Source of the DNA: a virus
Lineage: Duplodnaviria > Heunggongvirae > Uroviricota > Caudoviricetes
DNA length: 64,000 nt
IMG/VR virus record: IMGVR_UViG_2909314774_000001
Direction: 5' to 3' (one strand)
The translations under genes were made by a program, and so were the position numbers. Shown here in pieces: positions 11,027-49,449 of this stretch (the stretch's first letter is position 1; each line of letters starts with the position of its first letter). Under the pieces are notes generated by a model. It saw only the letters and a program-made list of their open reading frames with translations, did no database searches and was not told the DNA's origin.

Positions 11027-11107
11027 AAAATAAGCGTGGAGAACACCTCCACGCTTGATTCATTGGTGAAACAACTTTTCTTTTGCCAAACCACAAAAGA
11101 AAAACAC

Positions 11108-12286
11108 ATGAGCCTTTATGTTATATCAACATTTAGGTTGGTCACAATATTGCCTGTTAAAAGTGGAATTATCGTGAGCGAGCTGAAAGAGCTAATTACC
11201 GAATTAGATTTTGAACAATGGTTGGATACTGAAGGTATCGTTTATCGACGTGGAGGCGTGAGTGCTCGCGGTCGTGAAGTGAATATCAAGGAATGTCCGG
11301 TATGCGGCAGCTCCAACTGGAAGGTATATTTCAATCTGACCAGTGGCGTCGGCAAATGCTTTGCTGGTGATCATCCCGAAGAGATTCAGTTCAATAAGCT
11401 GGTCTTCCTCAAGCACTACAGCGGCAAATCACGACGACAGTTCGAGGAATATGTGCAGAACGCCCTTCTTTCCCAGGGGTGGGCACCAAAGAAAGAAGAG
11501 ATAGTGCTTGCAAGCACAGTCGAGTTAGAGGGACCACTTGCACTCCCTCGTCATTACGAACTTCCTATAGATGGCCGTCTTCCAGACTATCTGGTTGAAC
11601 GAAACATATCGCCTGAAATGGCAAAGTATTTTGACCTACGATACTGCGTCGAAGGCAAGCACGCCTATGTAGATCCGTATACAGATCAGGTTAAAGGACA
11701 GATATTCGATATGCGAATACTGATACCGGTTTACGATCTGGATGGGGTAATGAAGACATTTCAGGGACGAGACATTACCGGTACAGCAGAACGCCGCTAC
11801 CTCTTTCCTATGCAGCTTCCAGCTTCAGGTAAGTTTCTCTACAACGGCCATAATGCAGTCGGCAAACAGACTGTAGTTGTCTGTGAGGGGGCGTTCGATG
11901 TTATGGGGGTTAAACGAGCTATTTTTGACGAAGAAACATTACGTGATTACGTGGAACCAATAGGAACGTTCGGGATGCATCTATCTGGTAACACCACTCA
12001 GGATGCAGAAGATCAGTTAGGCGCGTTCCTGACGCTCAAGGCGCGTGGGTTACGTAATGTGATCATGATGTGGGATAGTGAAAAGCAAGCTATACGTAAT
12101 ACGATGGCCGCAGCCAGGCGACTGACCAGTATTGGTCTTAATGTCAAAGTGGCGTGTTTGGGCGAGGAAGGACTCGACCCGGGCGATGCAACGCCAGAGC
12201 AAATCATCAAAGCCTATTATCGGGCAAAACCGTATACCAAGCAGTTGGAGTTACAAAGCAAGGTTTTGGGCATTAAGGCTCTATGA
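11108..12286 (+). CDS. DNA primase (zinc-finger + TOPRIM, DnaG-like)
   Basis: CPVCGSSNWKV...GKCF zinc ribbon and TOPRIM motif VVVCEGAFDVMGV; start moved to ATG 11108, which carries the conserved AAAAACACATG context. Confidence 0.75.
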   Translation: MSLYVISTFRLVTILPVKSGIIVSELKELITELDFEQWLDTEGIVYRRGGVSARGREVNIKECPVCGSSNWKVYFNLTSGVGKCFAGDHPEEIQFNKLVFLKHYSGKSRRQFEEYVQNALLSQGWAPKKEEIVLASTVELEGPLALPRHYELPIDGRLPDYLVERNISPEMAKYFDLRYCVEGKHAYVDPYTDQVKGQIFDMRILIPVYDLDGVMKTFQGRDITGTAERRYLFPMQLPASGKFLYNGHNAVGKQTVVVCEGAFDVMGVKRAIFDEETLRDYVEPIGTFGMHLSGNTTQDAEDQLGAFLTLKARGLRNVIMMWDSEKQAIRNTMAAARRLTSIGLNVKVACLGEEGLDPGDATPEQIIKAYYRAKPYTKQLELQSKVLGIKAL

Positions 12287-13196: not shown

Positions 13197-13679
13197 ATGG
13201 CGGTAGTTGTGAAAGCTGATTTGTCAAAAATCCCTTCTATTTCAGGAAATAACGGTTATTCACTTCGTTGTGAGGAAGTAAAGATAAACGGTGAGTCGGC
13301 ATATTGCAGCTATTCCGTTTGCCAGCACACCATTCTTGCCTTCAAAGAAAACCGTCTTCCTCGAACTTCTTTCCAGTCGTGCGCAACCGCTATCAAAGAA
13401 GGCAAATGCAAGGCGTTAAAAATGATGGTTGAAGAGATTCGTAAAGGAGAATCTCTGTATTTCGAAGATATGACCGCGCTCATTAAGGAGGTTGAAGAAC
13501 GGAATAAACAAGCCAGAACTATAAAACGAAAACGTGACAGTGTAACGATTAATAGCATGGTTAAGAAGAGCACCACATCACAAACAGCGATCACTGACGT
13601 GTATGCGGCGTTGCTTGAAGAAACAACAAAAGAAACACATGAGCAAATCGATCAACATATGGAGGCAAAACAACAATGA
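13197..13679 (+). CDS. Hypothetical protein
   Basis: 160-codon ORF with a Cys cluster; overlaps the ligase start (ATGA). Confidence 0.45.
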   Translation: MAVVVKADLSKIPSISGNNGYSLRCEEVKINGESAYCSYSVCQHTILAFKENRLPRTSFQSCATAIKEGKCKALKMMVEEIRKGESLYFEDMTALIKEVEERNKQARTIKRKRDSVTINSMVKKSTTSQTAITDVYAALLEETTKETHEQIDQHMEAKQQ

Positions 13680-14998
13680 AAAAGTTGATCGCACTTAAGC
13701 ATAAGCTGGACGAAATGAAAGCTATGGGAACCAATGCAAAAAAAGAGGCATTGGCCAACATGGATGACTTCGAGCAAAGCATGGTTTCATTGATGCTCAA
13801 CCCTTTCATCCGTTTTGGGGTAAAGAAATACAAAGTGGCAGAGCCGCTTAGTGAGTCCGTCCCAAGTGACGAAAAAGCCATTGATATACTGAATAAGCTG
13901 GCCTCTCGCGAGCTGACGGGGAACGCAGCAATAGCTGCTGTTGAGTCTATCGTGGCGTCAATGTGCGCCGATGGGCAGGACGTGTTCCGTCGTTTCCTCT
14001 TAAAAGATCCGAAAGCTGGCGTTGGGATTAGCCTATGCAACAAGGTTTTTGAAAATCCCATTCCGAAATTTGAGGTGCAGCTGGCGTCACCGTATAAAGA
14101 AAAAGGCGACAAATACCCCTTCAAGCCAAATCCTAAAGCCAAATGGCCGATGATTGGCAGCCTTAAGCTCGATGGTTTGCGAGTAATTTGTGAGGTTATT
14201 GTTGACGAGGAAGAGGTGAACTTCCTTTCTCGTACTGGTAATCCAATCACGTCTCTCGATCACCTAAAGCCAGCCATGCTCGAATTAGGCAAACTTTCAG
14301 GCCACAAACACATCTTCTTCGATGGTGAAGGAACAGCCGGTTCATTTAACCAGTCCGTATCTGCATTGCGCAAAAAGAACGTGCAGGCAATTGGCGCTAT
14401 TTATCATGTTTTCGACTTCTTCCTACCGGAATGGCGGGCACAGGCTAAATCCAAAGAGTATGCAAAGACAGGTATGAAGCTGAAAGAGCGCCTGGCTATT
14501 CTCGTGGCGTTGTTCAAAAACGATCGCAGTGAAGACTACGCGCAAGACATTCACCTACATCCGTTCTACATCATCCATAGCCACGAAGACTTCATCGAAC
14601 GCTTCATGAAACGCCTGGACGATAACGAAGAAGGGGAGATGGGCAAAGATCCGAACTCTGTTTACGAGTTTAAACGTACCCGCAGCTGGTGGAAGTTAAA
14701 AGACGAAGATTCAGAAGATGGTGAAATTATCGACTTTGAGCCTGGCGACCCGGACTCTGGTTTTGCCAACACGCTTGGAAAAATTGTTATTCGTCTTGAA
14801 AACGGCGTCATCGTTCGTGCGAGTGGCATTAAGCATAAATATCTGGACGAGATCTGGAACAACAAAGAGAAGTACCGTGGTCGTATTGTCGAGGTTCATT
14901 GTCACGAGAAAACACCTGATGGCAGCTTACGCCACCCACGACTGAAATGGCCGCGTTGCTTACGCGATACCGAAGATCGAATCGGAGATAAAGAATGA
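13676..14998 (+). CDS. ATP-dependent DNA ligase
   Basis: Adenylation motif I KLDG (GSLKLDGLRVICEV) and later ligase motifs. Confidence 0.8.
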   Translation: MKKLIALKHKLDEMKAMGTNAKKEALANMDDFEQSMVSLMLNPFIRFGVKKYKVAEPLSESVPSDEKAIDILNKLASRELTGNAAIAAVESIVASMCADGQDVFRRFLLKDPKAGVGISLCNKVFENPIPKFEVQLASPYKEKGDKYPFKPNPKAKWPMIGSLKLDGLRVICEVIVDEEEVNFLSRTGNPITSLDHLKPAMLELGKLSGHKHIFFDGEGTAGSFNQSVSALRKKNVQAIGAIYHVFDFFLPEWRAQAKSKEYAKTGMKLKERLAILVALFKNDRSEDYAQDIHLHPFYIIHSHEDFIERFMKRLDDNEEGEMGKDPNSVYEFKRTRSWWKLKDEDSEDGEIIDFEPGDPDSGFANTLGKIVIRLENGVIVRASGIKHKYLDEIWNNKEKYRGRIVEVHCHEKTPDGSLRHPRLKWPRCLRDTEDRIGDKE

Positions 14999-21210: not shown

Positions 21211-23319
21211 ATGTCTAAAAAACGTTCCATCAAAGAGGTTCAGGACTTCCGTGACAGTGTAAAACGAGTAGTCGCTCTCCTTTCAGGTAAAAACATCCCT
21301 GTTGCAGAACGAGGGGACGACGCTTATGTACGCTATAACGATGATGGAGAGCCAATTCTCGTAAACATCCCATCAATCCCGGATAACGCAACACCGGCAT
21401 TGATGAATGCTGTGCGCGGATTTCTCGATCATGAGGTTGCTCACATTTTGTTTACCGATATTCGTGTGTCCAACAAAATGAGAGAAAAAGGACGCGTTCC
21501 TTCCTGGTCGCTATGGAATGCCTTAGAAGACGTGTTCATCGAGCGAAAAATGGGTCAGGTCTTTAACGGAACAAGACGTAATCTGATGGCAACTCAGCGC
21601 CTTATAATCGAAAAAGTCTTTAAACCAAAGGCTTCAGAGGCTATTGCTTATTGTGGCAAAGATCAGCGCGCGCTTTTTCTAAACTTCTTTCTCTGTCCGG
21701 TTGTAAGAGCCTGGGATGGCCAAGCACCGTTCGTAGATTTCATGGATGAATATTGGCCTGTCATTGAGAAACCAATTTCATTATTAAAAGAACATGGTAT
21801 CGATGTGGCCGTGCGTAACATGTCTTGCACCGAGGATTGTGTAAAGGTGGCTGCGACCATAGCTAAGATCCTCAAAGACACTGAAAGTGAAAGCAAAGGT
21901 AAGGAGTCAGCTCCGGGAAAAACTTCCGATCCTTCAGACGCTGACCAGACGGATGCCTCTGGAGAAAACAATGAAGACAACGAAGATCATGAGACACCCT
22001 CATCGTTAGATAATCACAAATCTATTAAATCAGAGTCACATAGTAAGCACAAACATGATAATAACGACAGTGATGATTCAGATAATCCTGAATCATCAGA
22101 AACAATATTCGATGATACAGAAAATGATAAAGCGGTATCAGATTCTGATGCTTCTGATAACGCGGCGTCAGAATCATTAACCGCTGACCACGAAAAAAGA
22201 AAAACGACAGAAGACGGCTCTTCAGACATTCCAACTCCGTCAAAAATGAGTCTGGAAGAGGCTTTAGAGGAGTTGGATAGCATGGAAGATGAAGTCGGAG
22301 GCATGACAGAAGATGCGCTATCCGAAACGATTAAAAGCGAGTTAACAGAAAGCTCGAAAAGCGAATACAGGCCATACAATCGCTCATACGACTTCATCGG
22401 CTCGATTGATCAGGCAGAAGCCCATATCAAACGGCTTATTAAAACATTCTCCGATATTGATTTAGGTGGATATCCAATCAGCCGTTATCGCATCGTTCCT
22501 GAAGGCAACCAACTCTTCGACAAATATATTGAAAAGCACCTTTCGTCAGGTGTTTCGTCGACGCTGGCAAAAGACCTGGAACGTGCAATAGCAAGCAGAA
22601 ACAGAGTTCAGTTTATACCTGGCCAGCGTCGGGGGCGCATTCATGGTTCAAGTATCTACAGATTAACAATGAATGATGATCGCGTGTTTCGTAAAAAAGA
22701 AGAATCTAAAGCCGTTAACGCCTGTGTTCAACAAGTGATTGATTTATCGGGTTCAATGAGTGGCGAAACGATAAAACTAGCTCTTGCAAGTGCATATACC
22801 ATCGCCGATGCACTTGATCGAATAAATGTTCCCAACATTATCACCGGCTTCACTACATTTGGCAGTCATATGGCAGCAGGAGAACTTAAGGCTATCAAAT
22901 ATGAGTTCTCTCGCTTTGAATCTTTAATGCTACCTATCATCAAAAATTGGAATGAAAAAGCAAATTCTCGCGAAGTTCGCTCACGTATGGGGTGCGTAGG
23001 CTACACATTCCCACTTCTTAATAACGTGGATGGTGAAAGCATAGCCAGCCTTGCATCGTTATTTTCCGGTCGCTTGGAGGACAGGAAGATCATGCTTGTT
23101 CTGAGCGATGGCGCGCCGTGGGCTGTTGGGAGAGGTTTTGACGCCCATTTGCGTTCGGTTACGAAGCAAATTGAAACGCAGACTGACATTGATTTGATGG
23201 CAATTGGCATCATGACTGATGCACCGGAGAGATTTTACGCAAATCATGCCCTGGTAACTAGTGTTGATAGTCTTGGTTCATCTGTAGTTACTGAACTATC
23301 TCGTATCATTTTGAAGTAA
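21211..23319 (+). CDS. von Willebrand factor A domain protein (CobT-like) with long acidic Ser/Asp-rich disordered insert
   Basis: MIDAS motif DLSGSMSG in the C-terminal half; central ~110 residue low-complexity acidic segment. Confidence 0.65.
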   Translation: MSKKRSIKEVQDFRDSVKRVVALLSGKNIPVAERGDDAYVRYNDDGEPILVNIPSIPDNATPALMNAVRGFLDHEVAHILFTDIRVSNKMREKGRVPSWSLWNALEDVFIERKMGQVFNGTRRNLMATQRLIIEKVFKPKASEAIAYCGKDQRALFLNFFLCPVVRAWDGQAPFVDFMDEYWPVIEKPISLLKEHGIDVAVRNMSCTEDCVKVAATIAKILKDTESESKGKESAPGKTSDPSDADQTDASGENNEDNEDHETPSSLDNHKSIKSESHSKHKHDNNDSDDSDNPESSETIFDDTENDKAVSDSDASDNAASESLTADHEKRKTTEDGSSDIPTPSKMSLEEALEELDSMEDEVGGMTEDALSETIKSELTESSKSEYRPYNRSYDFIGSIDQAEAHIKRLIKTFSDIDLGGYPISRYRIVPEGNQLFDKYIEKHLSSGVSSTLAKDLERAIASRNRVQFIPGQRRGRIHGSSIYRLTMNDDRVFRKKEESKAVNACVQQVIDLSGSMSGETIKLALASAYTIADALDRINVPNIITGFTTFGSHMAAGELKAIKYEFSRFESLMLPIIKNWNEKANSREVRSRMGCVGYTFPLLNNVDGESIASLASLFSGRLEDRKIMLVLSDGAPWAVGRGFDAHLRSVTKQIETQTDIDLMAIGIMTDAPERFYANHALVTSVDSLGSSVVTELSRIILK

Positions 23320-23414
23320 TTAAAACAGCCTTAATGATAAGTAACTACTTACCATAGTTAATGGTATATTTATATAAGAACTTGAACGCTCATTAGAGAA
23401 CAAAGGAAAAGCGC

Positions 23415-24650
23415 ATGACTACTACTGCACTGCAAAATGATAAAAATCCTTCTGATTACCTTGTTTGCAAGTGGTGCGGCAAATCATTTCACTATTTTAA
23501 GTCCCATGTAGCCAATGGTAATTGCGAGGGCATTCCTGAGTCAGTAAAAGATGCCGATCCTGACACCGTACTGAAAATGTACACAACGCAGTTTCCAGAT
23601 GAACCAACGCTATCGAAAAAGGCACTTGATGCAATTCAAGCTAAACGTGCCGAGCAAAAAAGCGAAATGGCGAAATCTTCTGGCTTGACCAGTAGCCCAG
23701 GCTACACAGGCACAGTTGAGTACAAGACAGATCTGGTCGCAGCTCACGAACTGCTAAACGTAACGGTGGAAGAACTCGGAACAAAACGTGGGACGCCGCT
23801 CATGGTTAGCGTCAACGTCAATACGCCGTATCCAGAGTTCGTTCCAGAAGTGAAGAAGGGCTACGTATATGGCGACTTCGAACTGATCAAAGATATTTTC
23901 ATGATGCTTGAACTTGGCATACCTGGCTATTTGTGGGGTCATGCAGGAACAGGCAAATCGTCATTGCCTACACAGCTATGTGCTTTGCTCAATCGTCCGT
24001 TGATCCGTGCCCAACATACAGCATCAATGGAAGAGGCACATGTTACGGGGCAAATTCTGGCGCGTGATGGCTCTACGTATTTCGAGCCTGGCTTGCTTGC
24101 GCTCGCAATGAAGCATGGCTGGGTTTACCTCGCGGATGAATACGACTTTGCGTTTCCACAAATTCTTGGCGTGTATCAGCCAGTGCTGGAAGGTGAGGCG
24201 TTGGTCATCAAAGAGGCAACTCCAGAATGGCGTCGCATTACTCCGCATGAACGGTTTGCTTTCATTGGCACTGGCAACACAAACGGTTCTGGTGATGAAA
24301 CCGGCTTGTACCAGGGTACAAACATCCAGAACGCCGCGAACTTTTCACGTTTTGGCATCGTTTCGAATGTGAAATACATGAGCAAAGAGGCAGAGATCAA
24401 CATGTTGATAAATGCCGGCATCGTGGATGAATACGCTGAAAAGATGGTTAAGTTTGCCGGTATCGTTCGCGATGGATATGAAGAACACCTTATCAGCCAG
24501 CCAATTGGGCCTCGTGAGCTTTTGTTGTCGGCCAAGATTGGAATGATGCGAGGCGACTTTGTGACAGGTATTGAGCGTTCTTTCATTAACAAACTCCCTT
24601 CAGCTTCTGCGCAAGCGGCTCGTGAAGTTGTTCAAAAAATATTTGGTTAA
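23415..24650 (+). CDS. AAA+ ATPase (CobS/MoxR-like)
   Basis: Walker A GHAGTGKSS and Walker B VYLADEYD; adjacent to the VWA protein, the usual pairing. Confidence 0.7.
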   Translation: MTTTALQNDKNPSDYLVCKWCGKSFHYFKSHVANGNCEGIPESVKDADPDTVLKMYTTQFPDEPTLSKKALDAIQAKRAEQKSEMAKSSGLTSSPGYTGTVEYKTDLVAAHELLNVTVEELGTKRGTPLMVSVNVNTPYPEFVPEVKKGYVYGDFELIKDIFMMLELGIPGYLWGHAGTGKSSLPTQLCALLNRPLIRAQHTASMEEAHVTGQILARDGSTYFEPGLLALAMKHGWVYLADEYDFAFPQILGVYQPVLEGEALVIKEATPEWRRITPHERFAFIGTGNTNGSGDETGLYQGTNIQNAANFSRFGIVSNVKYMSKEAEINMLINAGIVDEYAEKMVKFAGIVRDGYEEHLISQPIGPRELLLSAKIGMMRGDFVTGIERSFINKLPSASAQAAREVVQKIFG

Positions 24651-24652
24651 TC

Positions 24653-24856
24653 GTGCGTAAAGGATGTTTCGGCTCTCTTATCGCTGCTTCTGAAACTGGC
24701 AAGGCTTGTCTGGGGTGTCCAGACAAGCCCGATTGTCACCAATCAGCAAAAGAAGTTGCGATTTCGATGTATGGGAAGTTCGTAGGCTTCCCCAATGACA
24801 AAATCAAAAAAACCAGAAAGGTAAAAACACATGAAGGCACTGATGGTTCGAACTGA
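24653..24856 (+). CDS. Small Cys-rich protein
   Basis: 67-codon ORF with C..C...C pattern; overlaps the start of the polymerase gene. Confidence 0.35.
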   Translation: MRKGCFGSLIAASETGKACLGCPDKPDCHQSAKEVAISMYGKFVGFPNDKIKKTRKVKTHEGTDGSN

Positions 24857-27800
24857 CTTCTCACTTGGGGAGTCGGCTCTAAAAGCAGAAAACGCGGTGA
24901 AGATTGCCAGAGAAGCTGGCTACACCGCTGTAATTTCAGCAGATAGCATGAATATTGCAAGTGTTATTCCACTACAACGTGCCGCTGGTGACGACATGGC
25001 GGTTATTTGTGGTGTGAAACTAAACATTGTTGATGATCCCACATACGAGCACCGGGCTAAACTTGCTAAAGAATCTATGAGATGTATGGAATCATTAGAG
25101 CGGGGACGTAACTACTCGTTTACCGCTCTAATTAAAAATGAGCAAGGATATCGCGACATCTGCGAACTAATGACGGCGGCCAACACACGAGAACAGTTCT
25201 ACTTTGTACCGCGTCTCTCGCTCGAACAGTTGGTTTCTACATATGCCAAAGGCAACATCATCCTGCTTACTTCCGACATCGGTAGCGTGTTCCAACGCAA
25301 CGATTTTGCAAAAATCATAAGCACACTGATTACAGCGGGTGGAAAAGACAACTTCTATAGTGTGGTTTATCCGCACCCTACCCCATTCTACGACCAGATT
25401 AACGTCCGGGCGATGAAAGTCGCCAGCGCATTGAAAATAGAGCCAGTGGCGTTCTATCCCGCTTATTACGAATCGATCGACGATGCAGACATTAAAGACA
25501 TTGCGCACATGGTTACGAACAACATCAAAATCGACCAGCCGCATCGTCTGCGTATCCCCCACCAGCGAGATAACGCCGTCAATGGTCGCCGCCATCTCCT
25601 TGAGGCGCTTAAAGCCTTCTCCGTTCGCATGGATGTGCCGGTAACAGCTGCAATGGCCTCAACAACGCAGGATACCATTATCGATGCCTGCACATGGCGC
25701 TGGCATGAATTGCCGCCAGCACTGCCAAAGATGGCAGACGACGAGCCTGCAACGCTTATGAAACTGGCTGTTGCAGGGCTGCGTAAACGTCTTACCACAA
25801 AAGAGTTTGGCTACACACCACCTGCTTCTGAGAACAGGGTTTATGTTGAGCGGCTAAAGTACGAAATGGACACGCTGACTCGCCTGGGATTTTGTGGTTA
25901 CTTCCTGATGGTACGCGATCTGATGAATCATAGTCGTGAAACTGGCATTCCCGTTGGGCCTGGTCGTGGTTCCTCTGCCGGTTCTCTGGTGGCGTGGTGC
26001 ATAGGCATAACCAACGTCGACCCAATCCGTCACGGTCTTCTGTTTGAGCGTTTCATCAACCCTGAGCGTCTCGACTTGCCGGATGCGGACTTGGACTTCA
26101 GCCAGGCACGTCGCCATGAGGTGATCGAGTATCTGAATGAACGCTACGGCGAAGATTACGTTGCGGGTATTCCGAACTTCACCTACCTGGGCGCAGCCTC
26201 TGCACTACGTGATACCGCTCGTATTTATGGTGTGGAGTCCGCAGATATGGCGGTATCAAAAGAACTGAAGAACGCTGAGGATGATAGCCTTCCATTGGAA
26301 GAACTGCGCGAACAACTGGCAAGTCTCGACAAATACGCAACAAAATATCCTGATGCATTCAATGCAGCCTGCAAGTTACAAAGCCTTATGCGTGGCTTTG
26401 GTAGACATGCGGCAGGGATGATCGTAGCAGGTGTTCCTCTGACAGAACGTACACCGGTTGAGCGCCGTGGTGACGCGCGTTGTATCGCATTTGACAAGCG
26501 TTACTGCGAGGCTATGGGCCTAATTAAGCTGGACGTGCTTGGCCTGGCAACTCTCGATTTGCTCGATAGTGCAAAACGCTACATAAAAGAGAACACAGGT
26601 GAAGATATCAATCTTGATGCCATTTCTCTTGAAGATCGCAAGGTGCTGGATGGTTTTGCTGCTGGGTACACTCAAGGTGTTTTCCAGCTTGAATCAGGCC
26701 CAATGCGCAAGCTGCTTAAAGATTTAGGTGGTGGAATTGAGCCAATGAGCTTTAAAACGGTCGTCGCTACAACTGCGCTCTTCCGGCCGGGGCCAATTCA
26801 ATCAGGCATGTTGGATGACTATGTTTCTGTCGCCAAAGGCTTTATGACGCCGGAATCATTACACCCCGTTCTTGATGAACTTACCGCGGAAACAAATGGC
26901 GTGATTCTCTATCAGGAACAGACGATGAACGCGACTCGATTGCTTGCCGGCTTCACAATGGCTGAAGCTGACGCTGTGCGTTCCGCAATCGGTAAGAAGA
27001 ACATGGAAAAAATGAAGAGCATGGGCGAGAAGTTCATCGTTCAGGCTCAAGCTGGCTGGATAGACGTTGAGCTGGAAGATGGCACTACACAGCGCATTCA
27101 CCGTGCGGAACATTTTAAATGCGAAGACGGAACTCTGAAAACTGTCGAAGAGGCACTTGAGCACGGCGCAAAACTACCTATAAACGCAGTACGCGTTACA
27201 GCGTCACATCCAGGGCTATCAGAGATGAAAGCGAAGGAGATCTGGACCGCATTTGAGAAAAACGGAGCCTATCAGTTCAATAAATCACACTCCGTTGCTT
27301 ATTCTTTAATCAGTTATCAGTCTATGTGGCTAAAGACGCACTACCCTGCTGAGTTCTTCGCAGCTGCGCTCACCATTCTGGGCGAGGATAAGCATCAGGG
27401 GCTGGTGAAGGATGCGCTGACCTATGGCATTCGCGTATTGCCACCAGACGTTAATGTGTCATCTAACCGAATTGAGATCCGCACACTCGAAGACGGCAGT
27501 CAGGCACTGTATGCGCCATTCTCTGCTGTGAAAGGCTGTTCTGAAAATGGTTGTCAGGCAATTATGCGTGCGCGTGAGAAAGTTGGTGGCAAATTCGAGT
27601 CAGTGGCACAATTCGATGAAGCGGTCGAGAAGCGTGCATGTAACAGTCGTGTACGCGAGTCGCTTCATAAAGTAGGGGCTTTTGCGTCAATTGAGCCAGG
27701 CAGTCTTCCAGCAACTGATCCTGAACGACTGCGCGACCAGGCTGAGCTGATGGGCAATCTCATCATTGACGCTGTTAAAGCATCACGTCCGTTCGAAATG

Positions 27801-28349
27801 AATCCTAAGCGTTCTGCCGAAATCAACGTACTCATGACACGTATGGCGGCTGAAATGGGCTTGGGTGAGGAGTTGATACGCCCGACTATTGGTATTAAAC
27901 CCAAAATCATGATCATTCTGGACAATGCGAACGGCAATGACGCTCGTACCGGCTACTTCATGGAGAACGGATACGACGACTTTAAGGCAAAACTACTGAC
28001 AGTTGGAGATCTGCGCATGGGCGATCTTTATGTCACGGGTGTTTGTAAGAAGGTTAAGGACAAAGAGAAAGACTATACCAAAGACGAGATAGGCCAGTTC
28101 ACAGACTTTATGCGGGAAGAAATTAATCTTGTACGACCAACCTACATTTTGACGTGTGGTAGTCGTTCAACCGCACTATTTAACAATAAGAGTAAACCAT
28201 CAGATCTGATTGGTCGTAAGGAGTACTTCCCAGAGCTTGATGCAACCGTCTTCTACGGATTTAACCCGAATATCCTGTACTTCCGACCGGAAGAAGGAGA
28301 GCGACTGGAGGCCATTCTGGCTGATATCGCGGAGACAATAAATAAGTAA
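24831..28349 (+). CDS. DnaE-type DNA polymerase III alpha-like replicative polymerase with extra C-terminal domain
   Basis: PHP N-terminal domain and Pol III alpha core motifs (GFCGYF..., GPGRGSSAGSLVAW..., LLFERFINPER..DAD.DF); C-terminal ~170 residues are not part of the canonical core. Confidence 0.85.
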   Translation: MKALMVRTDFSLGESALKAENAVKIAREAGYTAVISADSMNIASVIPLQRAAGDDMAVICGVKLNIVDDPTYEHRAKLAKESMRCMESLERGRNYSFTALIKNEQGYRDICELMTAANTREQFYFVPRLSLEQLVSTYAKGNIILLTSDIGSVFQRNDFAKIISTLITAGGKDNFYSVVYPHPTPFYDQINVRAMKVASALKIEPVAFYPAYYESIDDADIKDIAHMVTNNIKIDQPHRLRIPHQRDNAVNGRRHLLEALKAFSVRMDVPVTAAMASTTQDTIIDACTWRWHELPPALPKMADDEPATLMKLAVAGLRKRLTTKEFGYTPPASENRVYVERLKYEMDTLTRLGFCGYFLMVRDLMNHSRETGIPVGPGRGSSAGSLVAWCIGITNVDPIRHGLLFERFINPERLDLPDADLDFSQARRHEVIEYLNERYGEDYVAGIPNFTYLGAASALRDTARIYGVESADMAVSKELKNAEDDSLPLEELREQLASLDKYATKYPDAFNAACKLQSLMRGFGRHAAGMIVAGVPLTERTPVERRGDARCIAFDKRYCEAMGLIKLDVLGLATLDLLDSAKRYIKENTGEDINLDAISLEDRKVLDGFAAGYTQGVFQLESGPMRKLLKDLGGGIEPMSFKTVVATTALFRPGPIQSGMLDDYVSVAKGFMTPESLHPVLDELTAETNGVILYQEQTMNATRLLAGFTMAEADAVRSAIGKKNMEKMKSMGEKFIVQAQAGWIDVELEDGTTQRIHRAEHFKCEDGTLKTVEEALEHGAKLPINAVRVTASHPGLSEMKAKEIWTAFEKNGAYQFNKSHSVAYSLISYQSMWLKTHYPAEFFAAALTILGEDKHQGLVKDALTYGIRVLPPDVNVSSNRIEIRTLEDGSQALYAPFSAVKGCSENGCQAIMRAREKVGGKFESVAQFDEAVEKRACNSRVRESLHKVGAFASIEPGSLPATDPERLRDQAELMGNLIIDAVKASRPFEMNPKRSAEINVLMTRMAAEMGLGEELIRPTIGIKPKIMIILDNANGNDARTGYFMENGYDDFKAKLLTVGDLRMGDLYVTGVCKKVKDKEKDYTKDEIGQFTDFMREEINLVRPTYILTCGSRSTALFNNKSKPSDLIGRKEYFPELDATVFYGFNPNILYFRPEEGERLEAILADIAETINK

Positions 28350-28652: not shown

Positions 28653-28868
28653 TCAGCTTAGAGCAATGACATTTGCTGCTGCTGGGCCTTTAGCCCCATT
28701 CTCGATAGAGAATTCGACCTGCTGGCCTTCTTCCAAAGTGCGGAAATTATTACTCTGAATTGCCGAAAAATGTACAAAAACATCTTTACTGCCATCAGCA
28801 GGAGAAATAAAGCCAAAGCCTTTATCAGAGTTAAACCATTTTACTAAACCAGTCATTTTATTAGACAT
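28653..28868 (-). CDS. Cold-shock protein (CspA family)
   Basis: [23 protein letters not shown]...VFVHFSAIQ... closely matches the E. coli CspA-family sequence; start set at the conserved MS.KMTG. Confidence 0.95.
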
Positions 28869-29197
28869 AGATATTACCTTCTTAATTTTGTGAGCCACAT
28901 AGTGCGGCGAGAATTTGATCTGTATAGATTGGGACTTACTTAGGCACTTAAGGAGGAGACTCACGAAGAAGGGAAATCAGAAGATAACACTGAACTGAGA
29001 CTGCTTTACTAAAACTGCTTACATAAGGTCTGTCTTGCAAACCAACGATGCTATTAACGCATACCCCTTCTTTTCATGCAACCTTTATTTTTCAAAGATA
29101 ACTAATTTTTGTCACCATTGGTTTAGTAAACGTTAACGAACCAGACGATGCCAGACACCTTTACAGAGAACAGATGCCCGCCAATTGGCGGGCATCA

Positions 29198-30849: not shown

Positions 30850-31878
30850 ATGTCTAAGACATTACTTGATTTGCTTAACAAAACTCGTGAAGACATTGCC
30901 GCCAAACGTGGCAACAACGTTGATCTGACTCGCTTAAAAGACGGCGTCAACTATATCCGCATCTTCCCGAATAAAGACGACCCAAACGGTAAGTTCTTCC
31001 AGACTTTCGGTATGCACTACGTTAAGTATCAGAACGAGGAAGGTAAAGAAGCAACCAACGCTTATATTTGTGAGCAACATACTCACGGTCGCGCTTGTCA
31101 GCTATGCGAAATGGTTATGGAAGGTCGCGCTCGTCACAAGGGTAACAAAGCAATGGAAGAACGCATCGGTCAAATGCGTGCCACTCCTCGCTACCTGGTC
31201 AACGGCATTCTTTCTGCTCGTGAGGATTTCGCAGATGCTGAGAAATGCCAGTTAATCGAGCTGCCGTCTACTGTATTCGATGATATCTGCAAAGCAATCA
31301 CCGAAGACATCGCTGATGATATCGGCAATCCACTGAGCAAAGAGGAAGGCTACGCATTCCTGATTAAACGTACTGGCTCTGGTCGCGATACCAAATATGA
31401 CGTCTCGCCTAAGCGTAAAGTCTACAAAGGCGATATCGAAGATAAATTCTGGAACACCCAGCATGATCTGATCGCATACGCAAATCAGGCTGATGAAACT
31501 CGTCTTCTGTCGACAGTTCGCACTATGGGTCGTCTGATTGGCATCGCTGCACCAACTGCCGCAGCATCTGCACCAGCAATTTCCTCAACCGCGAAAACAT
31601 CGGCTGCGGCACTACCTGGATTTGGCTCTGTCACTGGTCATACGGAGGGTGCGACTGCTGTAGCAACCGCTCACACCCCAGCTTCTGAACCAACCAGTCT
31701 GGTTGATGAAGAAATCCTCCGTGCCGTTGAAACTGAATTTAAACCAGAAGCAAGTTCCGCTGCCGTTGCCGTATCAGTCAAAGAGTCTGAAGCAGTCGCA
31801 GCGACATCTGTAGCAGCCGCATCTGCGACGGAAGACGAAGGTCTGGATGACCTACTGAGAGAGCTGGACTCTCTGTAA
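30850..31878 (+). CDS. Putative single-stranded DNA-binding protein
   Basis: Cys/His cluster (C..H...C..C), Ala/Ser/Thr-rich linker and acidic C-terminal tail DEGLDDLLRELDSL typical of SSBs; sits with FEN and RecA. Confidence 0.5.
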   Translation: MSKTLLDLLNKTREDIAAKRGNNVDLTRLKDGVNYIRIFPNKDDPNGKFFQTFGMHYVKYQNEEGKEATNAYICEQHTHGRACQLCEMVMEGRARHKGNKAMEERIGQMRATPRYLVNGILSAREDFADAEKCQLIELPSTVFDDICKAITEDIADDIGNPLSKEEGYAFLIKRTGSGRDTKYDVSPKRKVYKGDIEDKFWNTQHDLIAYANQADETRLLSTVRTMGRLIGIAAPTAAASAPAISSTAKTSAAALPGFGSVTGHTEGATAVATAHTPASEPTSLVDEEILRAVETEFKPEASSAAVAVSVKESEAVAATSVAAASATEDEGLDDLLRELDSL

Positions 31879-31893
31879 TCCCATTACGTGACC

Positions 31894-31923
31894 AGTAAGG
31901 CGTCTACGGACGCCTTACTTTTT
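31894..31923 (+). terminator. Intrinsic terminator
   Basis: AGTAAGGCGTC-TACG-GACGCCTTACT followed by TTTTT; lies inside the ORF-track extension of the next gene. Confidence 0.6.
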
Positions 31924-31938
31924 GGAAGGAATGTACCG

Positions 31939-32883
31939 GTGAATTATCTCTTCGTAGATGGCAATAGCCTGGGTTATTACCACCAACAATCTGACAAATT
32001 GCACAACGGCGAAATGGAAGTACAGGCTGCTTTCGGCTTTGTTAAGAACGTCCGTCGTTATGCCTCCATCCTCCATGCCCGACCTATGATTCTTTGGGAT
32101 GGATTTAGTGACAAGCGTCGCGACTTTTACCCGGACTACAAAGCAAATCGCGACGACGATCCTGATATGAAAAAGATGAAGGAAGGCTTTGCTATCCAGA
32201 AGCCATACATCCTCAAAATGATGACCGCGCTTGGAGTTACCCAACTCATTGCAAAAGATGCAGAAGCGGATGATCTGGCCGGGCTGCTGGTATCCCGCAT
32301 GGCACCGCAGCCAACCGTTGAACACATCTATCTGTTAACAGGCGATAGCGACTGGCTTCAGTTAGTTCGTGAAAACGTAAGCTGGGTAAGCCTGCGTGAA
32401 GACGCCAAAAACAAGCAGGTTAATTTTGAGCAATTTGCGGAGCTGACAGGATTCGCCACGCCTCGCGCATTTTTGGAAGCAAAAGCATTACAAGGCGATA
32501 ACTCGGACAACATTAGCGGTGTTGGTGGCATTGGTGCTGGCGGTGCGAAAGAGCTGCTGCATGAATGGGGAAGTGTCGCAACGATGGTACGCGGCATCAA
32601 CGACGGCTCAATCGTGGTTAATAAAGGGCGTCATAAGACCGCCTTCAACAAACTAGCGAAGAATGCCTTCAACGAGAAAACAGGCTGTCGAATGCTCGAA
32701 GCGTTCAAGAGAAACATCACGCTAATGAACCTGATTGAGACGAAGTTTCCGCCTACCGAAATCGAAACAATCAAAGGCAATCGTGACGTGAAAGCATTCG
32801 AGCAACTGTGCTACGAGCTGAATTTCCGTTCGTTCCTTGAAGACCTTGAAGTGTTTGTTCTTCCATTCGAAAGGTATTGCTAA
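31939..32883 (+). CDS. 5'-3' exonuclease / flap endonuclease (FEN)
   Basis: N-terminal nuclease motifs (LFVDGNSLGYY, ILWDGFSDKRRDFYP, LLTGDSDWLQL) and helix-3-turn-helix (GDNSDNISGVGGIG); start moved to GTG 31939 to exclude the terminator hairpin. Confidence 0.8.
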   Translation: MNYLFVDGNSLGYYHQQSDKLHNGEMEVQAAFGFVKNVRRYASILHARPMILWDGFSDKRRDFYPDYKANRDDDPDMKKMKEGFAIQKPYILKMMTALGVTQLIAKDAEADDLAGLLVSRMAPQPTVEHIYLLTGDSDWLQLVRENVSWVSLREDAKNKQVNFEQFAELTGFATPRAFLEAKALQGDNSDNISGVGGIGAGGAKELLHEWGSVATMVRGINDGSIVVNKGRHKTAFNKLAKNAFNEKTGCRMLEAFKRNITLMNLIETKFPPTEIETIKGNRDVKAFEQLCYELNFRSFLEDLEVFVLPFERYC

Positions 32884-33151: not shown

Positions 33152-34225
33152 ATGGCAAAAGGAAAATCCGCACTGGCACTTGCTCTGAAAAAGAAAATCG
33201 GTAGCAACGACGAAATTCAGAAAGTAACTCATTGGATTGATACAGGCTTTCCACCGTTAAACAAAGCTATTTCTGGTCGTTACGATGGCGGCTTCCCATG
33301 TGGTCGTATCGTCGAAGTATTCGGTCCTCCAAGTGCAGGGAAAACGTTCCTTGCAACAGCAGCGATGATCTCCGCTCAAAAACAAGATGGTCTGGCGGTA
33401 TTCCTCGATCATGAAAACAGTTTTGACGTTGGCCTGGCTGTAGCCAATGGCCTGAACGCAGATGAGGATGACGGTCAGTGGGTATACAAGCAGCCAGATA
33501 CCTTCGAAGACTCTGTAGAGTTGATCGGCACAATACTTAAATTGGTTCGTGATGAAGAGCTTATCCCCGAATCAGCACCTATCTGTATCGTGGCTGACTC
33601 TCTTGCGTCTATGGTTCCGAACTCCAAAGCCGAGAAGTTCGAAAAGATGGCTGAAGGCACTGCCAAAGACAAAGATCAGCTAAACATGAACGACAATACG
33701 GCACTGGCTCGTGCGACGAGTGCGAACTTCCCTACTCTGGCTTTGTGGGCACGCAAATACAACGCCTGCATCATCTTCTTGAATCAGGTTCGCACAAAAA
33801 TCGGTGTAATGTTTGGCGACCCTACTACGTCGCCAGGTGGAGATTCACCGAAGTTCTACGCTTCTGTACGTATCCGTCTTGGTGCATCGGTGATGAAGGA
33901 TGGTAAAGAGAAGATCGGCCAGGACGTAGGCGCAGAATGCATCAAAAACAAAGTTGCACCACCGTATGGCAAATGCACCTGGAAATTCTACTTCGATCCT
34001 ACTCGTGGCCTCGACGTTATCGAATCGCTCGTCGAGTACATGCTGGAAGAAGGATACCTGCCAAAGAACGCCAGCGGGCGAGTTGAAATTGGTGACAAGA
34101 AATACACCAAATCGCAGATCGTTGAGATGTATCGGGAGAAGCCACTGGCTGAAATCATTGCGGCTTTGCAGGCAATCGACGACCGAAGAGCAAAAGACAA
34201 CCCCACCGAGTCAGTAGAAGAGTAA
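33152..34225 (+). CDS. RecA-family recombinase
   Basis: Walker A GPPSAGKT and RecA-like core. Confidence 0.8.
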   Translation: MAKGKSALALALKKKIGSNDEIQKVTHWIDTGFPPLNKAISGRYDGGFPCGRIVEVFGPPSAGKTFLATAAMISAQKQDGLAVFLDHENSFDVGLAVANGLNADEDDGQWVYKQPDTFEDSVELIGTILKLVRDEELIPESAPICIVADSLASMVPNSKAEKFEKMAEGTAKDKDQLNMNDNTALARATSANFPTLALWARKYNACIIFLNQVRTKIGVMFGDPTTSPGGDSPKFYASVRIRLGASVMKDGKEKIGQDVGAECIKNKVAPPYGKCTWKFYFDPTRGLDVIESLVEYMLEEGYLPKNASGRVEIGDKKYTKSQIVEMYREKPLAEIIAALQAIDDRRAKDNPTESVEE

Positions 34226-40150: not shown

Positions 40151-41236
40151 ATGACTTTGCCATACGGCGTCATTTCTGACTGCCACTACCATAAATGGGA
40201 TGCGTTCTCCACGACGAACGCTGAGGGGCTTAACTCCAGACTTGAAATACAGTTGGAAGCAACGAAAGAAGCAGCCATCGCCATGAAGAAGGCCGGTTGT
40301 AAGTACATGTTGGTTGCCGGTGATACATTTCACGTCCGAGGAACTGTGTCCCCTTCTGTTTTGCATTACGTAACTGAAACGTACAAGTGGATTATCAACG
40401 AGCTTGATCTGACAGTAGTAATGCTGGCCGGTAATCACGATCTTGAAACCAACGATTCAGTATATAGCGCCAACGCAGCAGCATCGCTGAGTTCTATCGG
40501 CGTGGTAATCGTATGTGGCAAGCGCCCACACTCAATAAAAATTGGTGATGTGACTGTCCACCTGATTAGCTGGCGTAACAATCATGCGGAGCTTATCAGC
40601 GATCTGAAAGCATTACGTAAGAGCGTAGAAGGTGATAATCATGACGTTGTTATCCATACATCCATTAACAAAGCCATTCCAACAATGCCTGACGTCGGTA
40701 TCGATGCGCAGGAGTTAAAGGATATCGGCTTTCGTCTCGTGCTTAGTGGGCATTACCACAACCACAAAGAGGTCATTCCTGGAGTTATCAGTGTCGGTGC
40801 ACTGACTCATCAAAATTGGGGAGATGTTGGATCTCTGGCTGGCTACATGATCGTAAACCCGGACGGCAGTTTCAGTCACTACGAAACCAGTGCGCCTAAA
40901 TTCATTAACCTGGAAGATGATGTTGCTGATGACCAAATTCGCGGCAACTACGTGCGTTTCCGCGCCGTAATTGAGAACGATGAAGAAGGCATTAAGTACC
41001 AGAACATCCTCAAAACAATGGGTGCAAAAGGTGTCGTGTGCAACTTCATCCGTAAGTCATCAATGATGGAAGGTACAGCCAGCACAACTGAAACCAGCAA
41101 AATCGATAGCCTGGGAGAGTCGGTATCTGCTTATTGCAAGATTGTCCACGATACTGACGGCGGATTTGATCTGAGCAAATTGGATATTTTGTGTCAGGAA
41201 ATCCTCACCGAAGCGGAGAGTTCGGAGGCTGTGTGA
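40151..41236 (+). CDS. SbcD/Mre11-like nuclease
   Basis: Calcineurin-like phosphoesterase motifs (DCHYH, GDTFH, GNHD). Confidence 0.8.
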   Translation: MTLPYGVISDCHYHKWDAFSTTNAEGLNSRLEIQLEATKEAAIAMKKAGCKYMLVAGDTFHVRGTVSPSVLHYVTETYKWIINELDLTVVMLAGNHDLETNDSVYSANAAASLSSIGVVIVCGKRPHSIKIGDVTVHLISWRNNHAELISDLKALRKSVEGDNHDVVIHTSINKAIPTMPDVGIDAQELKDIGFRLVLSGHYHNHKEVIPGVISVGALTHQNWGDVGSLAGYMIVNPDGSFSHYETSAPKFINLEDDVADDQIRGNYVRFRAVIENDEEGIKYQNILKTMGAKGVVCNFIRKSSMMEGTASTTETSKIDSLGESVSAYCKIVHDTDGGFDLSKLDILCQEILTEAESSEAV

Positions 41237-41277
41237 AGCAAAGTCGTTATGGGAGCTTTCGAGACTTTGCCATCACG

Positions 41278-41469
41278 ATGAAAAGACTTGAACGAGGCCA
41301 GACGGTGATGTTTCACAAGCCCTACCCGCCACAAGGAAATCCCGTAGCGTTTTATCTTGGAAGGTTAACAAGAAAAGGCGTATTGAGGCGCAGATCCTTC
41401 CCGGCGCATACGGAGTTCAGATTGAAAGAAGGCCAAAAGCTAACACACGGTATCAGAGGTGTTATATGA
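41278..41469 (+). CDS. Hypothetical small basic protein
   Basis: 63-codon ORF filling the SbcD-SbcC gap; its stop overlaps the SbcC start. Confidence 0.3.
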   Translation: MKRLERGQTVMFHKPYPPQGNPVAFYLGRLTRKGVLRRRSFPAHTEFRLKEGQKLTHGIRGVI

Positions 41470-47083: not shown

Positions 47084-47188
47084 CATATGGTGGGGTATAA
47101 CCCCACCTTCTCTTTGATTTGTAAGCCTTGTTTAAACAAATAAGATAACAACTTGTTTAAACACATCAAAAAGCAAAAGGAAAAACAC

Positions 47189-49278: not shown

Positions 49279-49449
49279 TTGTAGGTAGTTATCTATCTGT
49301 GTATATTGCGTTGGCGCGTTAAATTTCTGAAACAACTATTCGTTTTTGGTGGCCTATGGCCACCATTTTTTTATCTATCTGGTCTTGTTCTCTCAATAAA
49401 TGTAAACTCACGCAATGAATAAGTGGTTACTTATCTTTGTGAGGTTTTT

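Follow-up and report, generated by a model that had tools for sequence, protein, structure and literature searches.

The window (a 64,000-nucleotide stretch of DNA from a member of the Caudoviricetes) encodes a DnaE-type DNA polymerase whose C-terminal tail lies outside the Pol III alpha core. The question raised by this locus is what that tail descends from, and what it contributes to the replicase that carries it.

The polymerase and its host element

The reading frame given in a preliminary description of this DNA (24831..28349, plus strand, ATG start, 1172 aa) was recovered unchanged, and its product is a C-family polymerase, scoring 626.7 bits against TIGR00594 (cutoff 434), with all four core Pfam domains (PHP, Pol3 palm, fingers and (HhH)2) above their cutoffs. 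The gene and its core are laid out as follows:

24831..28349, plus strand: dnaE gene, ATG-start ORF encoding a 1172-aa C-family (Pol III alpha-type) DNA polymerase
24846..25358, plus strand: PHP domain, residues 6-176 (PF02811, E 5e-13)
25755..26543, plus strand: Pol III alpha palm/NTPase core, DNA_pol3_alpha, residues 309-571 (PF07733, E 8.9e-74)
26550..27050, plus strand: fingers domain, residues 574-740 (PF17657, E 8.4e-44)
27078..27233, plus strand: insertion of ~52 aa, residues 750-801, at the junction of fingers and beta-binding domain (opposite a gap in E. coli DnaE)
27426..27695, plus strand: (HhH)2 / beta-binding domain, residues 866-955 (PF14579 HHH_6, E 3.3e-16)

BLASTP aligns residues 4-956 with residues 9-893 of E. 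coli K-12 DnaE at 30% identity and finds no alignment to that protein past residue 956; judged from this alignment, the Pol III alpha core stops near residue 956. The protein falls short of the chromosomal DnaE1 equivalog PRK05673 (675 bits versus a cutoff of 1002), the match stopping at about residue 743. In its PHP domain the usual N-terminal H-x-H is M-x-R (LMVRTDFS versus LRVHSDYS in E. coli), so this is probably not a proofreading PHP.

The gene is 100% identical to dnaE of the E. coli plasmid pM-64-197 and 84% identical to that of phage SSU5, and the window is an SSU5-like phage-plasmid of E. coli. The gene is present in 780 plasmid records, among them 63 from Yersinia and 49 from Salmonella that hold close relatives of the window copy. 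In many relatives, dnaE is split at the insertion site by an HNH homing-endonuclease gene; in one such variant (L003) the N part corresponds to residues 1-782 and the C part to residues 788-1172 of the window protein. A homology search with the tail returned mostly proteins of 374-390 aa, plus a small number of shorter fragments, and not a single full-length polymerase; on the sole contig examined (P0002), the short match is a genuine split-gene variant and not an artefact. Fragments of this protein are already labelled 'uracil-DNA glycosylase' by NCBI.

Homology and fold of the C-terminal domain

The tail corresponds to the following feature:

27798..28346, plus strand: domain with a family-4 uracil-DNA glycosylase (UDG) fold, residues ~990-1172, replacing the OB and tau-binding domains

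Searched alone, it matches NCBIfam TIGR00758 (UDG_fam4) with an E-value of 2.5e-8, and a profile of its 40-member family retrieves the PDB sequences 4zbx (E 2.4e-22), 1vk2 (7e-20) and 1ui0 (1e-16), with PF03167 matching 39 of the 40 members. Although the window protein misses two curated cutoffs, that of TIGR00758 (33.8 versus 125.3 bits) and that of PF03167 (15.5 versus 24.3 bits), homology to family-4 UDGs is secure at the profile level. The AF2 model of the tail (pLDDT 84, pTM 0.83) is an alpha/beta UDG fold with no beta-barrel; Foldseek aligns it with S. tokodaii UDG at E 6e-12 and TM 0.73-0.80, identity to 4zbx being ~20%, and the best 36 PDB matches are all family-4 UDG or UdgX. A second, independent structure aligner also returns the UDG fold, which is shared with the family-4 enzymes of S. 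tokodaii (4zbx), T. maritima (1l9g/1vk2) and T. thermophilus (1ui0) and with UdgX (6ail).

The preliminary description had called the tail an extra domain that loosely resembles a family-4 UDG. The resemblance stands, and 'loosely' understates a clear homology; the domain does lie outside the core, but because it takes up the site of the OB and tau-binding domains, it is a replacement for them and not an addition. The OB and tau-binding region of E. coli Pol III alpha occupies the same polypeptide position, directly after (HhH)2 and an internal motif (QADMF versus QAELM here), and yet shares no sequence or fold similarity with the window tail, the alignment stopping at residues 956/893. A canonical OB or tau-binding tail, the outcome that had been named as contradicting the UDG reading, is excluded: nothing like E. 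coli DnaE follows residue 956, and structure prediction, both aligners and the profiles give a family-4 UDG fold instead.

It is very improbable that the tail is a functionless vestige, or that its UDG likeness reflects chance or a misread OB/tau-binding domain. Catalytic and cofactor residues are indeed lost, and the window protein taken alone is below the curated family cutoffs, but 128 cluster representatives match the domain at E<=1e-10, at least 84 full-domain sequences among the matches listed come from outside the SSU5 group, and several positions are near-invariant. The domain is moreover confidently folded in the model and kept in split-gene variants; given the concurrence of two aligners with the profile searches and the dissimilarity of the E. 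coli OB/tau domains, the chance or OB reading is effectively refuted.

This architecture is already known and was published in 2014: Timinskas et al. (NAR 42:1393) reported a DnaE 'DnaEX' variant with a C-terminal UDG in certain Yersinia pestis and Salmonella enterica strains, and described it as an additional polymerase (PMC3919608). Its architecture is identical to that of the window DnaE (PHP-Pol3-(HhH)2, then a UDG of the archaeal PF03167 type in place of the OB domain and CTD), and the window protein belongs to the variant as there defined, including carriage on enterobacterial extrachromosomal elements. That account is one sentence long, without catalytic residues, Fe-S ligands, phage distribution or function, and the 2011 survey of Kazlauskas and Venclovas says of the C-terminal regions of viral C-family polymerases only that they 'may include different structural domains'. 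No functional or biochemical study of any DnaE-UDG fusion was found in the literature searched, surveys of virus replicases included.

Active-site and iron-sulfur positions

In family 4 and UdgX, the residues with assigned roles are E52, N91, H178 and R184: the motif-A Glu of family 4 activates water, N91 and H178 hydrogen-bond uracil and drive the departure of uracilate, and R184 binds substrate (PMC10359453). The four strings singled out in the preliminary description are present in the window protein (residues 1029-1046, 1067-1074, 1106-1117 and 1141-1149), and GEAPG and HPS have indeed given way to other residues, as it had claimed, E42, N82 and H164 of S. tokodaii UDG becoming D1031, G1070 and N1145. 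The equivalent segments are:

27918..27932, plus strand: motif-A equivalent L1030-D1031-N1032-A1033-N1034 (G-E-A/G-P-G in family 4), mapping to G41-G45 of 4zbx
28035..28052, plus strand: T1069-G1070-V-C-K1073-K1074 (T-N-V-V-K-C in family 4), with N82 of 4zbx becoming G1070 and C86 becoming K1074
28263..28283, plus strand: motif-B equivalent N1145-P-N-I-L-Y-F1151 (H-P-S/A-x-x-x-R/Y in family 4), with H164 becoming N1145 and Y170 becoming F1151

A register pairing GEAPG with DNANG was discarded, as the profile alignment pairs GEAPG with the LDNAN of residues 1030-1034, and the catalytic Glu therefore aligns with Asp1031. Among 113 fusion sequences, this position is acidic in 99 (D in 95 and E in 4, with N in 7), whereas the uracil-reading Asn is kept in only two. 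The motif-B His position holds N in 71, S in 25, T in 13 and H in 2, and Phe occupies the Arg position in 75 of the 113; with family-4 motif B also tested as H-P-S-(S/A)-(L/V)-(L/V)-R, His and Arg are both lost in the window DnaE. Opposite the Fe-S ligands C14, C17, C86 and C102 of 4zbx stand E1008, a gap, K1074 and F1090; with no Cys at any ligand position, an Fe-S cluster in this protein is ruled out. Many more distant fusions retain CxxC and the fourth Cys, and the loss is that of the window's clade.

Compared with family-4 UDGs, then, the window domain has LDNAN for GEAPG, Gly for Asn and Asn for His, has lost the motif-B Arg and the Fe-S cysteines, is acidic rather than basic, and forms part of a polymerase instead of standing alone. 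Because the uracil-recognition residues and the Fe-S ligands are replaced, it is probably no longer a canonical uracil glycosylase. 'Inactivated', as it had been termed, is a reading of the sequence, and the domain may retain a non-canonical activity, since the motif-A acid is kept as Asp and the pocket is among the best-conserved residues of the family. A derived pattern, x-D-x-P/A-[N/S/T]...Y-x-T-[G/S/A/T]-x-x-K...[N/S/T]-P, is common to more than 100 DnaE-UDG fusion clusters, and among 204 columns T1069 ranks 1st in conservation, P1146 4th, K1073 7th, P/A1033 14th, D1031 21st and N1145 35th, which suggests that the derived pocket is under purifying selection. Purely random decay of the active site is not favoured: like substitutions recur over the 113 fusions, and the pocket columns are highly conserved. 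Counter to a non-catalytic reading, the conservation of Asp1031 and of the pocket lining could equally mean a catalysis that is altered and retained.

That the domain is still a DNA glycosylase of altered chemistry or specificity, removing a template base ahead of the polymerase, is nonetheless unlikely. Asp1031 would then activate water like the Asp of family-1 GQDPY, Asn, Ser or Thr would take the place of the His of motif B, which the MUG/TDG family likewise lacks, and base removal would precede the polymerase as in the fused UDG of SP15-like A-family polymerases. The prevailing acid at the catalytic position and the rank of the pocket residues agree with this, the family-2 motifs GINPG/MPSSSAR lack the His too (PMC10359453), and active PolA-UDG fusions read dU ahead of the fork (bioRxiv 10.1101/2025.03.26.645540). 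Furthermore, the canonical EAPG, TN and HP survive in at least one DnaE-UDG fusion, the 1124-aa P0168, which makes replication-coupled excision plausible for the ancestor. All of this is opposed by the replacement of the equivalents of N91, H178 and R184 alike (Asn and His each surviving in 2 of 113 fusions), by the loss of the Fe-S ligands in the window's clade, by the acidity of the domain and by the position of the window protein under both curated cutoffs. Less probable still is that the conserved derived pocket constitutes a new functional class in the UDG superfamily, by which the replicase would read ahead on the template for, or excise, a base other than canonical uracil, or uracil by a different mechanism; if true, a bacterial-type polymerase would have its own counterpart of the archaeal B-family uracil pocket and of the SP15-like PolA-UDG fusions.

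Place of the domain in the replicase

Between the (HhH)2 and UDG-fold domains lies one further element:

27738..27752, plus strand: QAELM, residues 970-974, candidate beta-clamp-binding motif in a predicted disordered linker (from position and conservation)

The internal clamp-binding motif of E. coli alpha is QADMF, residues 920-924 (PMC3201878). QAELM begins 14 aa past the end of the HhH alignment and 920-QADMF-924 27 aa past it; AF2 gives pLDDT <50 over residues 966-981, and R966 and Q970 rank 3rd and 12th in conservation among the 204 columns. A contact with the beta clamp more probably lies in QAELM, just upstream of the UDG-fold domain, than in the domain itself, as suggested by sequence position and conservation. 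Neither a clamp nor a clamp loader was seen among the window genes checked.

The replication genes of the window include a DnaB-like helicase, a primase, a ligase, a gp32-like SSB, a FEN, RecA and a DnaQ-like exonuclease, and a CobS/CobT-like AAA+/vWA pair is encoded directly upstream of dnaE. The UDG-fold domain is acidic (pI 5.0, net charge -4), the median pI of the fusion family being 6.2 versus mostly 8-10 for free-standing canonical matches; generic DNA binding is thus not favoured, and a generic basic DNA-binding surface is weakened as a candidate.

It is possible, but doubtful, that the domain is mainly a protein-docking module, standing in for the lost tau-binding domain and tying the polymerase to another part of the replisome, for instance to the DnaB-like helicase, primase, gp32-like SSB or DnaQ-like exonuclease, or to the CobS/CobT-like pair. 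It holds the position of the tau-binding C-terminus, its pI fits protein contacts better than DNA contacts, and it stays joined to the beta-binding domain in the split gene; the module CobT-like, CobS-like, dnaE-UDG, SSB, FEN and RecA is in addition syntenic across enterobacterial, Pseudomonas and Rhizobium phages. The best-conserved residues, however, are those around what was the base pocket and along the DNA-contact strand, and do not form an obviously new surface.

The reading put forward here, to which we give an even chance, is that the domain serves the SSU5-type phage-plasmid replicase as an accessory module, non-canonical and probably without catalysis, derived from a family-4 UDG that replaced the OB domain and tau-binding CTD. 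The ancestral OB fold and tau-binding CTD have been swapped for a descendant of a family-4 (Fe-S) uracil-DNA glycosylase, placing the module at the site from which the OB domain usually handles template DNA; there it would guide or read DNA at the fork, or stabilise the polymerase on DNA, with processivity probably supplied by the host beta clamp through the conserved QAELM.

Parallels to such an accessory role would be the N4-like A-family polymerases, with their catalytically dead UDG-like domain, and the poxvirus D4 subunit. Among A-family phage polymerases with a fused UDG, the SP15-like are active and the N4-like lack the catalytic residues (bioRxiv 10.1101/2025.03.26.645540); active SPO1-like/SP15-like fusions include phiLo (9qhs) and YerA41. 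Their polymerase family is unrelated to that of the window DnaE (A versus C), and the UDG is N-terminal there and C-terminal here: A-family and C-family fusions are independent events. Earlier precedents for a polymerase-attached UDG are the SPO1/T5 hypothesis and vaccinia D4-A20 (PMC3201878). In the poxvirus holoenzyme E9-A20-D4, the UDG D4 is the processivity subunit; unlike the window domain, D4 is a catalytically active family-1 enzyme that joins a B-family polymerase as a separate subunit, with A20 as the bridge.

UDG-fold domains are now found on viral replicases of the A family (SPO1, SP15, N4), the B family (poxvirus D4) and the C family, and thus represent a recurrent solution; whether it serves processivity, template reading or coupled repair is settled for only a few cases in the A and B families. 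Carriers of the C-family version are the SSU5/pHCM2/pMT1-type phage-plasmids, which are very common in E. coli, Klebsiella, Salmonella and Yersinia and in part bring resistance genes with them, and the residue map obtained here (Asp1031, Gly1070, Asn1145, the missing Fe-S ligands and QAELM) makes the question of its role directly testable.

A DnaE core within a phage-plasmid replication module

The open reading frame at 24831-28349 (+), the single long one at this site, starts with ATG and encodes 1172 residues. Its product is, as the preliminary description had stated, a DnaE-type polymerase: four Pfam domains form the core of a DnaE-type C-family enzyme, and the protein reaches 626.7 bits against the Pol III alpha superfamily model TIGR00594 (cutoff 434) and none of the cutoffs of the chromosomal DnaE equivalogs (NCBIfam).

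Pfam domains of the window DnaE (residues)
6-176, PHP
309-571, DNA_pol3_alpha
574-740, fingers
866-955, HHH_6

Since the usual H-x-H metal-binding motif of the PHP domain reads M-x-R (LMVRTDFS at 24840-24863, residues 4-11; LRVHSDYS in E. coli), the domain probably does not serve as a nuclease for proofreading; the window encodes a DnaQ-like (RNase_T) exonuclease separately, at 52576-53130.

The window dnaE is 100% identical to that of E. coli plasmid pM-64-197, 93-96% to those of Escherichia phages Cyrano, PhiR41_1 and CMS-2020a, 84% to that of Salmonella phage SSU5 and ~80% to those of Klebsiella phage-plasmids, and it is held by 780 plasmid records (Klebsiella 313, Escherichia 220, Enterobacter 90, Yersinia 63, Salmonella 49), from which the window is judged to be a phage-plasmid of the SSU5/pHCM2/pMT1 type. 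Outside dnaE it is not identical to the otherwise very similar pM-64-197, since its RecA (33152-34225) is uninterrupted (357 aa) and the equivalent position of the plasmid (14322-15519 of locus L002) holds a 779-aa ORF annotated 'LAGLIDADG family homing endonuclease', presumably an intein-containing RecA. A self-contained replication and recombination module surrounds dnaE.

Genes of the module (window coordinates)
9686-11026, DnaB-like helicase
11036-12286, DnaG-like primase
13676-14998, ATP-dependent ligase
21211-23319, CobT-like vWA protein
23415-24650, CobS-like AAA+ protein
30850-31878, gp32-like SSB
31888-32883, 5'-3' exonuclease
33152-34225, RecA
40151-43382, ORFs of an SbcCD-like pair (by collinearity with pM-64-197 only)
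44768-48331, ORFs of NrdAB (by collinearity with pM-64-197 only)
48409-49278, MazG-like protein
49423-50553, thymidylate synthase
52576-53130, DnaQ-like exonuclease

The window genes checked included neither a sliding clamp nor a clamp loader, and the annotation of the related plasmid lists no dUTPase and no UDG as a separate gene. At 376 aa, the thymidylate synthase homologue is long, and it matches PF00303 in two stretches, suggesting an insertion. The neighbour immediately downstream of dnaE is a cold-shock protein gene in opposite orientation (cspG-like, 28653-28964, -), in place of which SSU5 and L003, a contig with a split dnaE, carry a DUF7740 protein gene. A 67-aa Cys-rich ORF (…CFGSL…CLGCPDKPDC…; 24653-24856, +) shares 26 nt with the start of dnaE; its same-position counterpart, SSU5_051, is annotated as a hypothetical protein. 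The CobT-like (vWA) and CobS-like (AAA_5) pair directly upstream of dnaE (21211-24650) is also found upstream in Pseudomonas phage nickie (2067-5468 of L007) and Rhizobium phage RHph_Y2_11 (830-4672 of L008), separated there from dnaE by one to three small genes. The wider module is syntenic among enterobacterial phage-plasmids, nickie and RHph_Y2_11, the order CobT-like, CobS-like, dnaE, SSB, FEN, RecA, SbcCD being the same in the Pseudomonas and Rhizobium phages as in the window.

A family-4 UDG-derived domain in place of the OB and tau-binding domains

Residues 4-956 align with 9-893 of E. coli K-12 DnaE at 30% identity (BLASTP), including a 52-residue insertion at 750-801, and the alignment ends there, which agrees with the earlier placing of the tail outside the Pol III alpha core; no counterpart of the E. 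coli OB fold or tau-binding domain was found by this comparison, and Pfam gave no significant match past residue 955 of the full-length protein. The last 222 residues match TIGR00758 (UDG family 4, E 2.5e-8) and an archaeal type-4 UDG model (E 2e-6) in NCBIfam, PF03167 in Pfam (E 0.019) and, by sequence search, the S. tokodaii UDG 4zbx (E 0.011), single-sequence scores that are real, though sub-threshold. A profile built from 40 diverse members of the family reaches PDB sequences of family-4 UDGs at E 2.4e-22, 7e-20 and 1e-16, and 39 of these 40 match PF03167 individually.

Relatives of the tail were collected and 13 of them aligned. An AlphaFold2 model of residues 961-1172 has a mean pLDDT of 84 and a pTM of 0.83, with disorder at 966-981, a helix at 992-1009 and then an alternating beta/alpha domain. 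Its first 36 PDB matches in Foldseek are family-4 UDGs and UdgX only (best 4zbx, E 5.9e-12, TM 0.73/0.80, with 1l9g, 1vk2 and 1ui0), followed by family 5 and TDG/MUG; among viral models it matches phage UDGs and UDG domains within A-family phage polymerases, that of SP-15 among them. The tail thus has a family-4 UDG fold, and a domain derived from this family stands in place of the OB and tau-binding domains. The preliminary description had seen such a fold by loose resemblance; the fold stands and the likeness is clear. An OB or tau-binding domain, the outcome it had set against a UDG fold in structure prediction, is rejected, as model, Foldseek and profile searches all return a UDG.

The window protein and 4zbx were each aligned to the family profile.

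Active-site residues (4zbx; window)
Motif A: G41-E42-A43-P44-G45; L1030-D1031-N1032-A1033-N1034
Stacking Phe: F55; M1044
Uracil-reading Asn: N82; G1070
Motif-B His: H164; N1145
Motif-B aromatic: Y170; F1151
Fe-S cysteines: C14, C17, C86, C102; E1008, deletion, K1074, F1090

In family 4 and UdgX the Asn and motif-B His hydrogen-bond uracil and promote departure of the uracilate, water activation falls to the motif-A Glu and substrate binding to a motif-B Arg (PMC10359453). Read against these roles, the window protein has lost the residues for uracil recognition, leaving-group departure and cofactor binding, while keeping an acidic residue at the catalytic position. The GEAPG and HPS signatures are indeed replaced, and the four peptide strings quoted in the preliminary description lie at residues 1029-1046, 1067-1074, 1106-1117 and 1141-1149; the pairing of GEAPG with DNANG was off by one residue, the profile alignment giving LDNAN. 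The tail, we infer, does not act as a canonical uracil glycosylase; homology ties it to family-4 UDGs, yet its defining residues place it outside that enzyme family.

Conservation across the fusion family

When 1.84 billion cluster representatives were searched with a profile, 724 proteins matched at E<=1e-3, of which 128 reached E<=1e-10. Strong matches are mostly full-length polymerases of 1080-1140 aa or proteins of 385-400 aa with HHH_6 and the UDG-like domain, and the weak end consists of free-standing UDGs of 190-280 aa. All sampled long members have the order PHP-Pol3-fingers-HHH_6-UDG, and isolated phages with the same fusion include Pseudomonas phages of the nickie group and Rhizobium phages RHEph10/RHph_Y2_11.

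Residues at former active-site positions in 113 fusion-context sequences
Catalytic Glu: D 95, N 7, E 4
Motif-A Pro: P 82, A 22
Last Gly of motif A: N 47, S 21, T 19
Uracil-reading Asn: G 37, S 30, A 23, T 17, N 2
Motif-B His: N 71, S 25, T 13, H 2

The same kinds of substitution thus recur throughout the family, rather than a decay differing from lineage to lineage. Because many distant members keep an N-terminal CxxC and the fourth cysteine, the ancestor was an Fe-S family-4 enzyme; in the SSU5 clade the cluster ligands are fully lost. One metagenomic fusion (P0168, 1124 aa) keeps TEAPG, YITN and HPG and lies above the Pfam UDG cutoff, making it a candidate enzymatically active C-family polymerase-UDG fusion; intact and degenerate forms therefore both exist, as in A-family polymerases.

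Among 204 columns ranked over 97 non-SSU5-biased sequences, former pocket and DNA-contact residues stand high (T1069 1, P1146 4, K1073 7, P/A1033 14, D1031 21, N1145 35), and rank 2 is Glu1097 (in REEINL; 28119-28121), which is E in 96/97 fusions and Gln in the S. tokodaii UDG. The tail is under purifying selection in its derived state, and a vestige without function is very improbable, former pocket residues being among the most conserved.

The junction between fingers and HhH seems to have been invaded repeatedly by mobile elements. In the one contig examined (L003, 2918-7170) of the P0002 cluster of tail relatives (1459 member sequences), a free-standing NUMOD4+HNH_3 homing-endonuclease gene splits dnaE into a 787-aa N part (matching window residues 1-782) and a 389-aa HhH and UDG-like C part (788-1172), the break falling inside the ~52-aa insertion of the intact window gene (27078-27233, residues 750-801). 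Three other fusions (P0055, P0147, P0121) carry inteins, some with LAGLIDADG, between fingers and HhH (window residues ~745-815), and the corresponding position is where PRK09532 and PRK07373, models of cyanobacterial split-intein DnaE, break.

Candidate clamp motif and proposed role of the tail

The observation of a DnaE-UDG fusion is correct and its earlier interpretation supported, yet the feature is already known, because Timinskas et al. (PMC3919608) describe the same protein family, citing PF03167, and a 374-aa fragment with exactly the window sequence (P0001) is named 'uracil-DNA glycosylase' at NCBI; the window protein is a member of their variant. The literature searched yielded no residue-level account of lost and kept UDG sites in these fusions, nor their breadth, an apparently intact form, a candidate clamp motif or a functional study.

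The linker between HhH and the UDG-like domain is disordered in the model (pLDDT <50 at 966-981) and holds R966 (rank 3) and Q970 (rank 12 of 204). Its family consensus is R-x-x-D-Q-x-E-L-x-P-G-L, the window sequence being RLRDQAELMGNL, and the motif lies 14 residues past the end of the E. coli alpha alignment; the internal beta-binding motif of E. coli alpha, 920-QADMF-924 (PMC3201878), lies 27 past the same point. QAELM (970-974) is a candidate clamp-binding motif, by which the polymerase may borrow the host beta clamp.

With a pI of 5.0 and a net charge of -4 (family median pI 6.2) the tail is acidic, and canonical free-standing UDG matches are mostly at pI 8-10. This speaks against a simple DNA-clamp role, and two rivals therefore remain: a module mainly for protein docking, in place of the tau contact, which we consider rather doubtful, and a non-canonical glycosylase using Asp1031, i.e., retained but altered catalysis, which seems unlikely. 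It is quite improbable that the altered pocket gives a C-family replicase a functional reader of template bases or a glycosylase with a new specificity. Precedents for an accessory role of such a domain are the SPO1/T5 UDG-like domains, for which a processivity role has been proposed, and the vaccinia D4-A20 factor (PMC3201878), together with N4-like A-family polymerases, whose fused UDG domain has lost its catalytic residues, and SP15-like enzymes, in which an active fused UDG reads template dU ahead of the fork (bioRxiv 10.1101/2025.03.26.645540). The tail would serve the phage replicase as an accessory module, in the position from which an OB domain usually contacts the template, and that this module is non-catalytic has about an even chance of being right.
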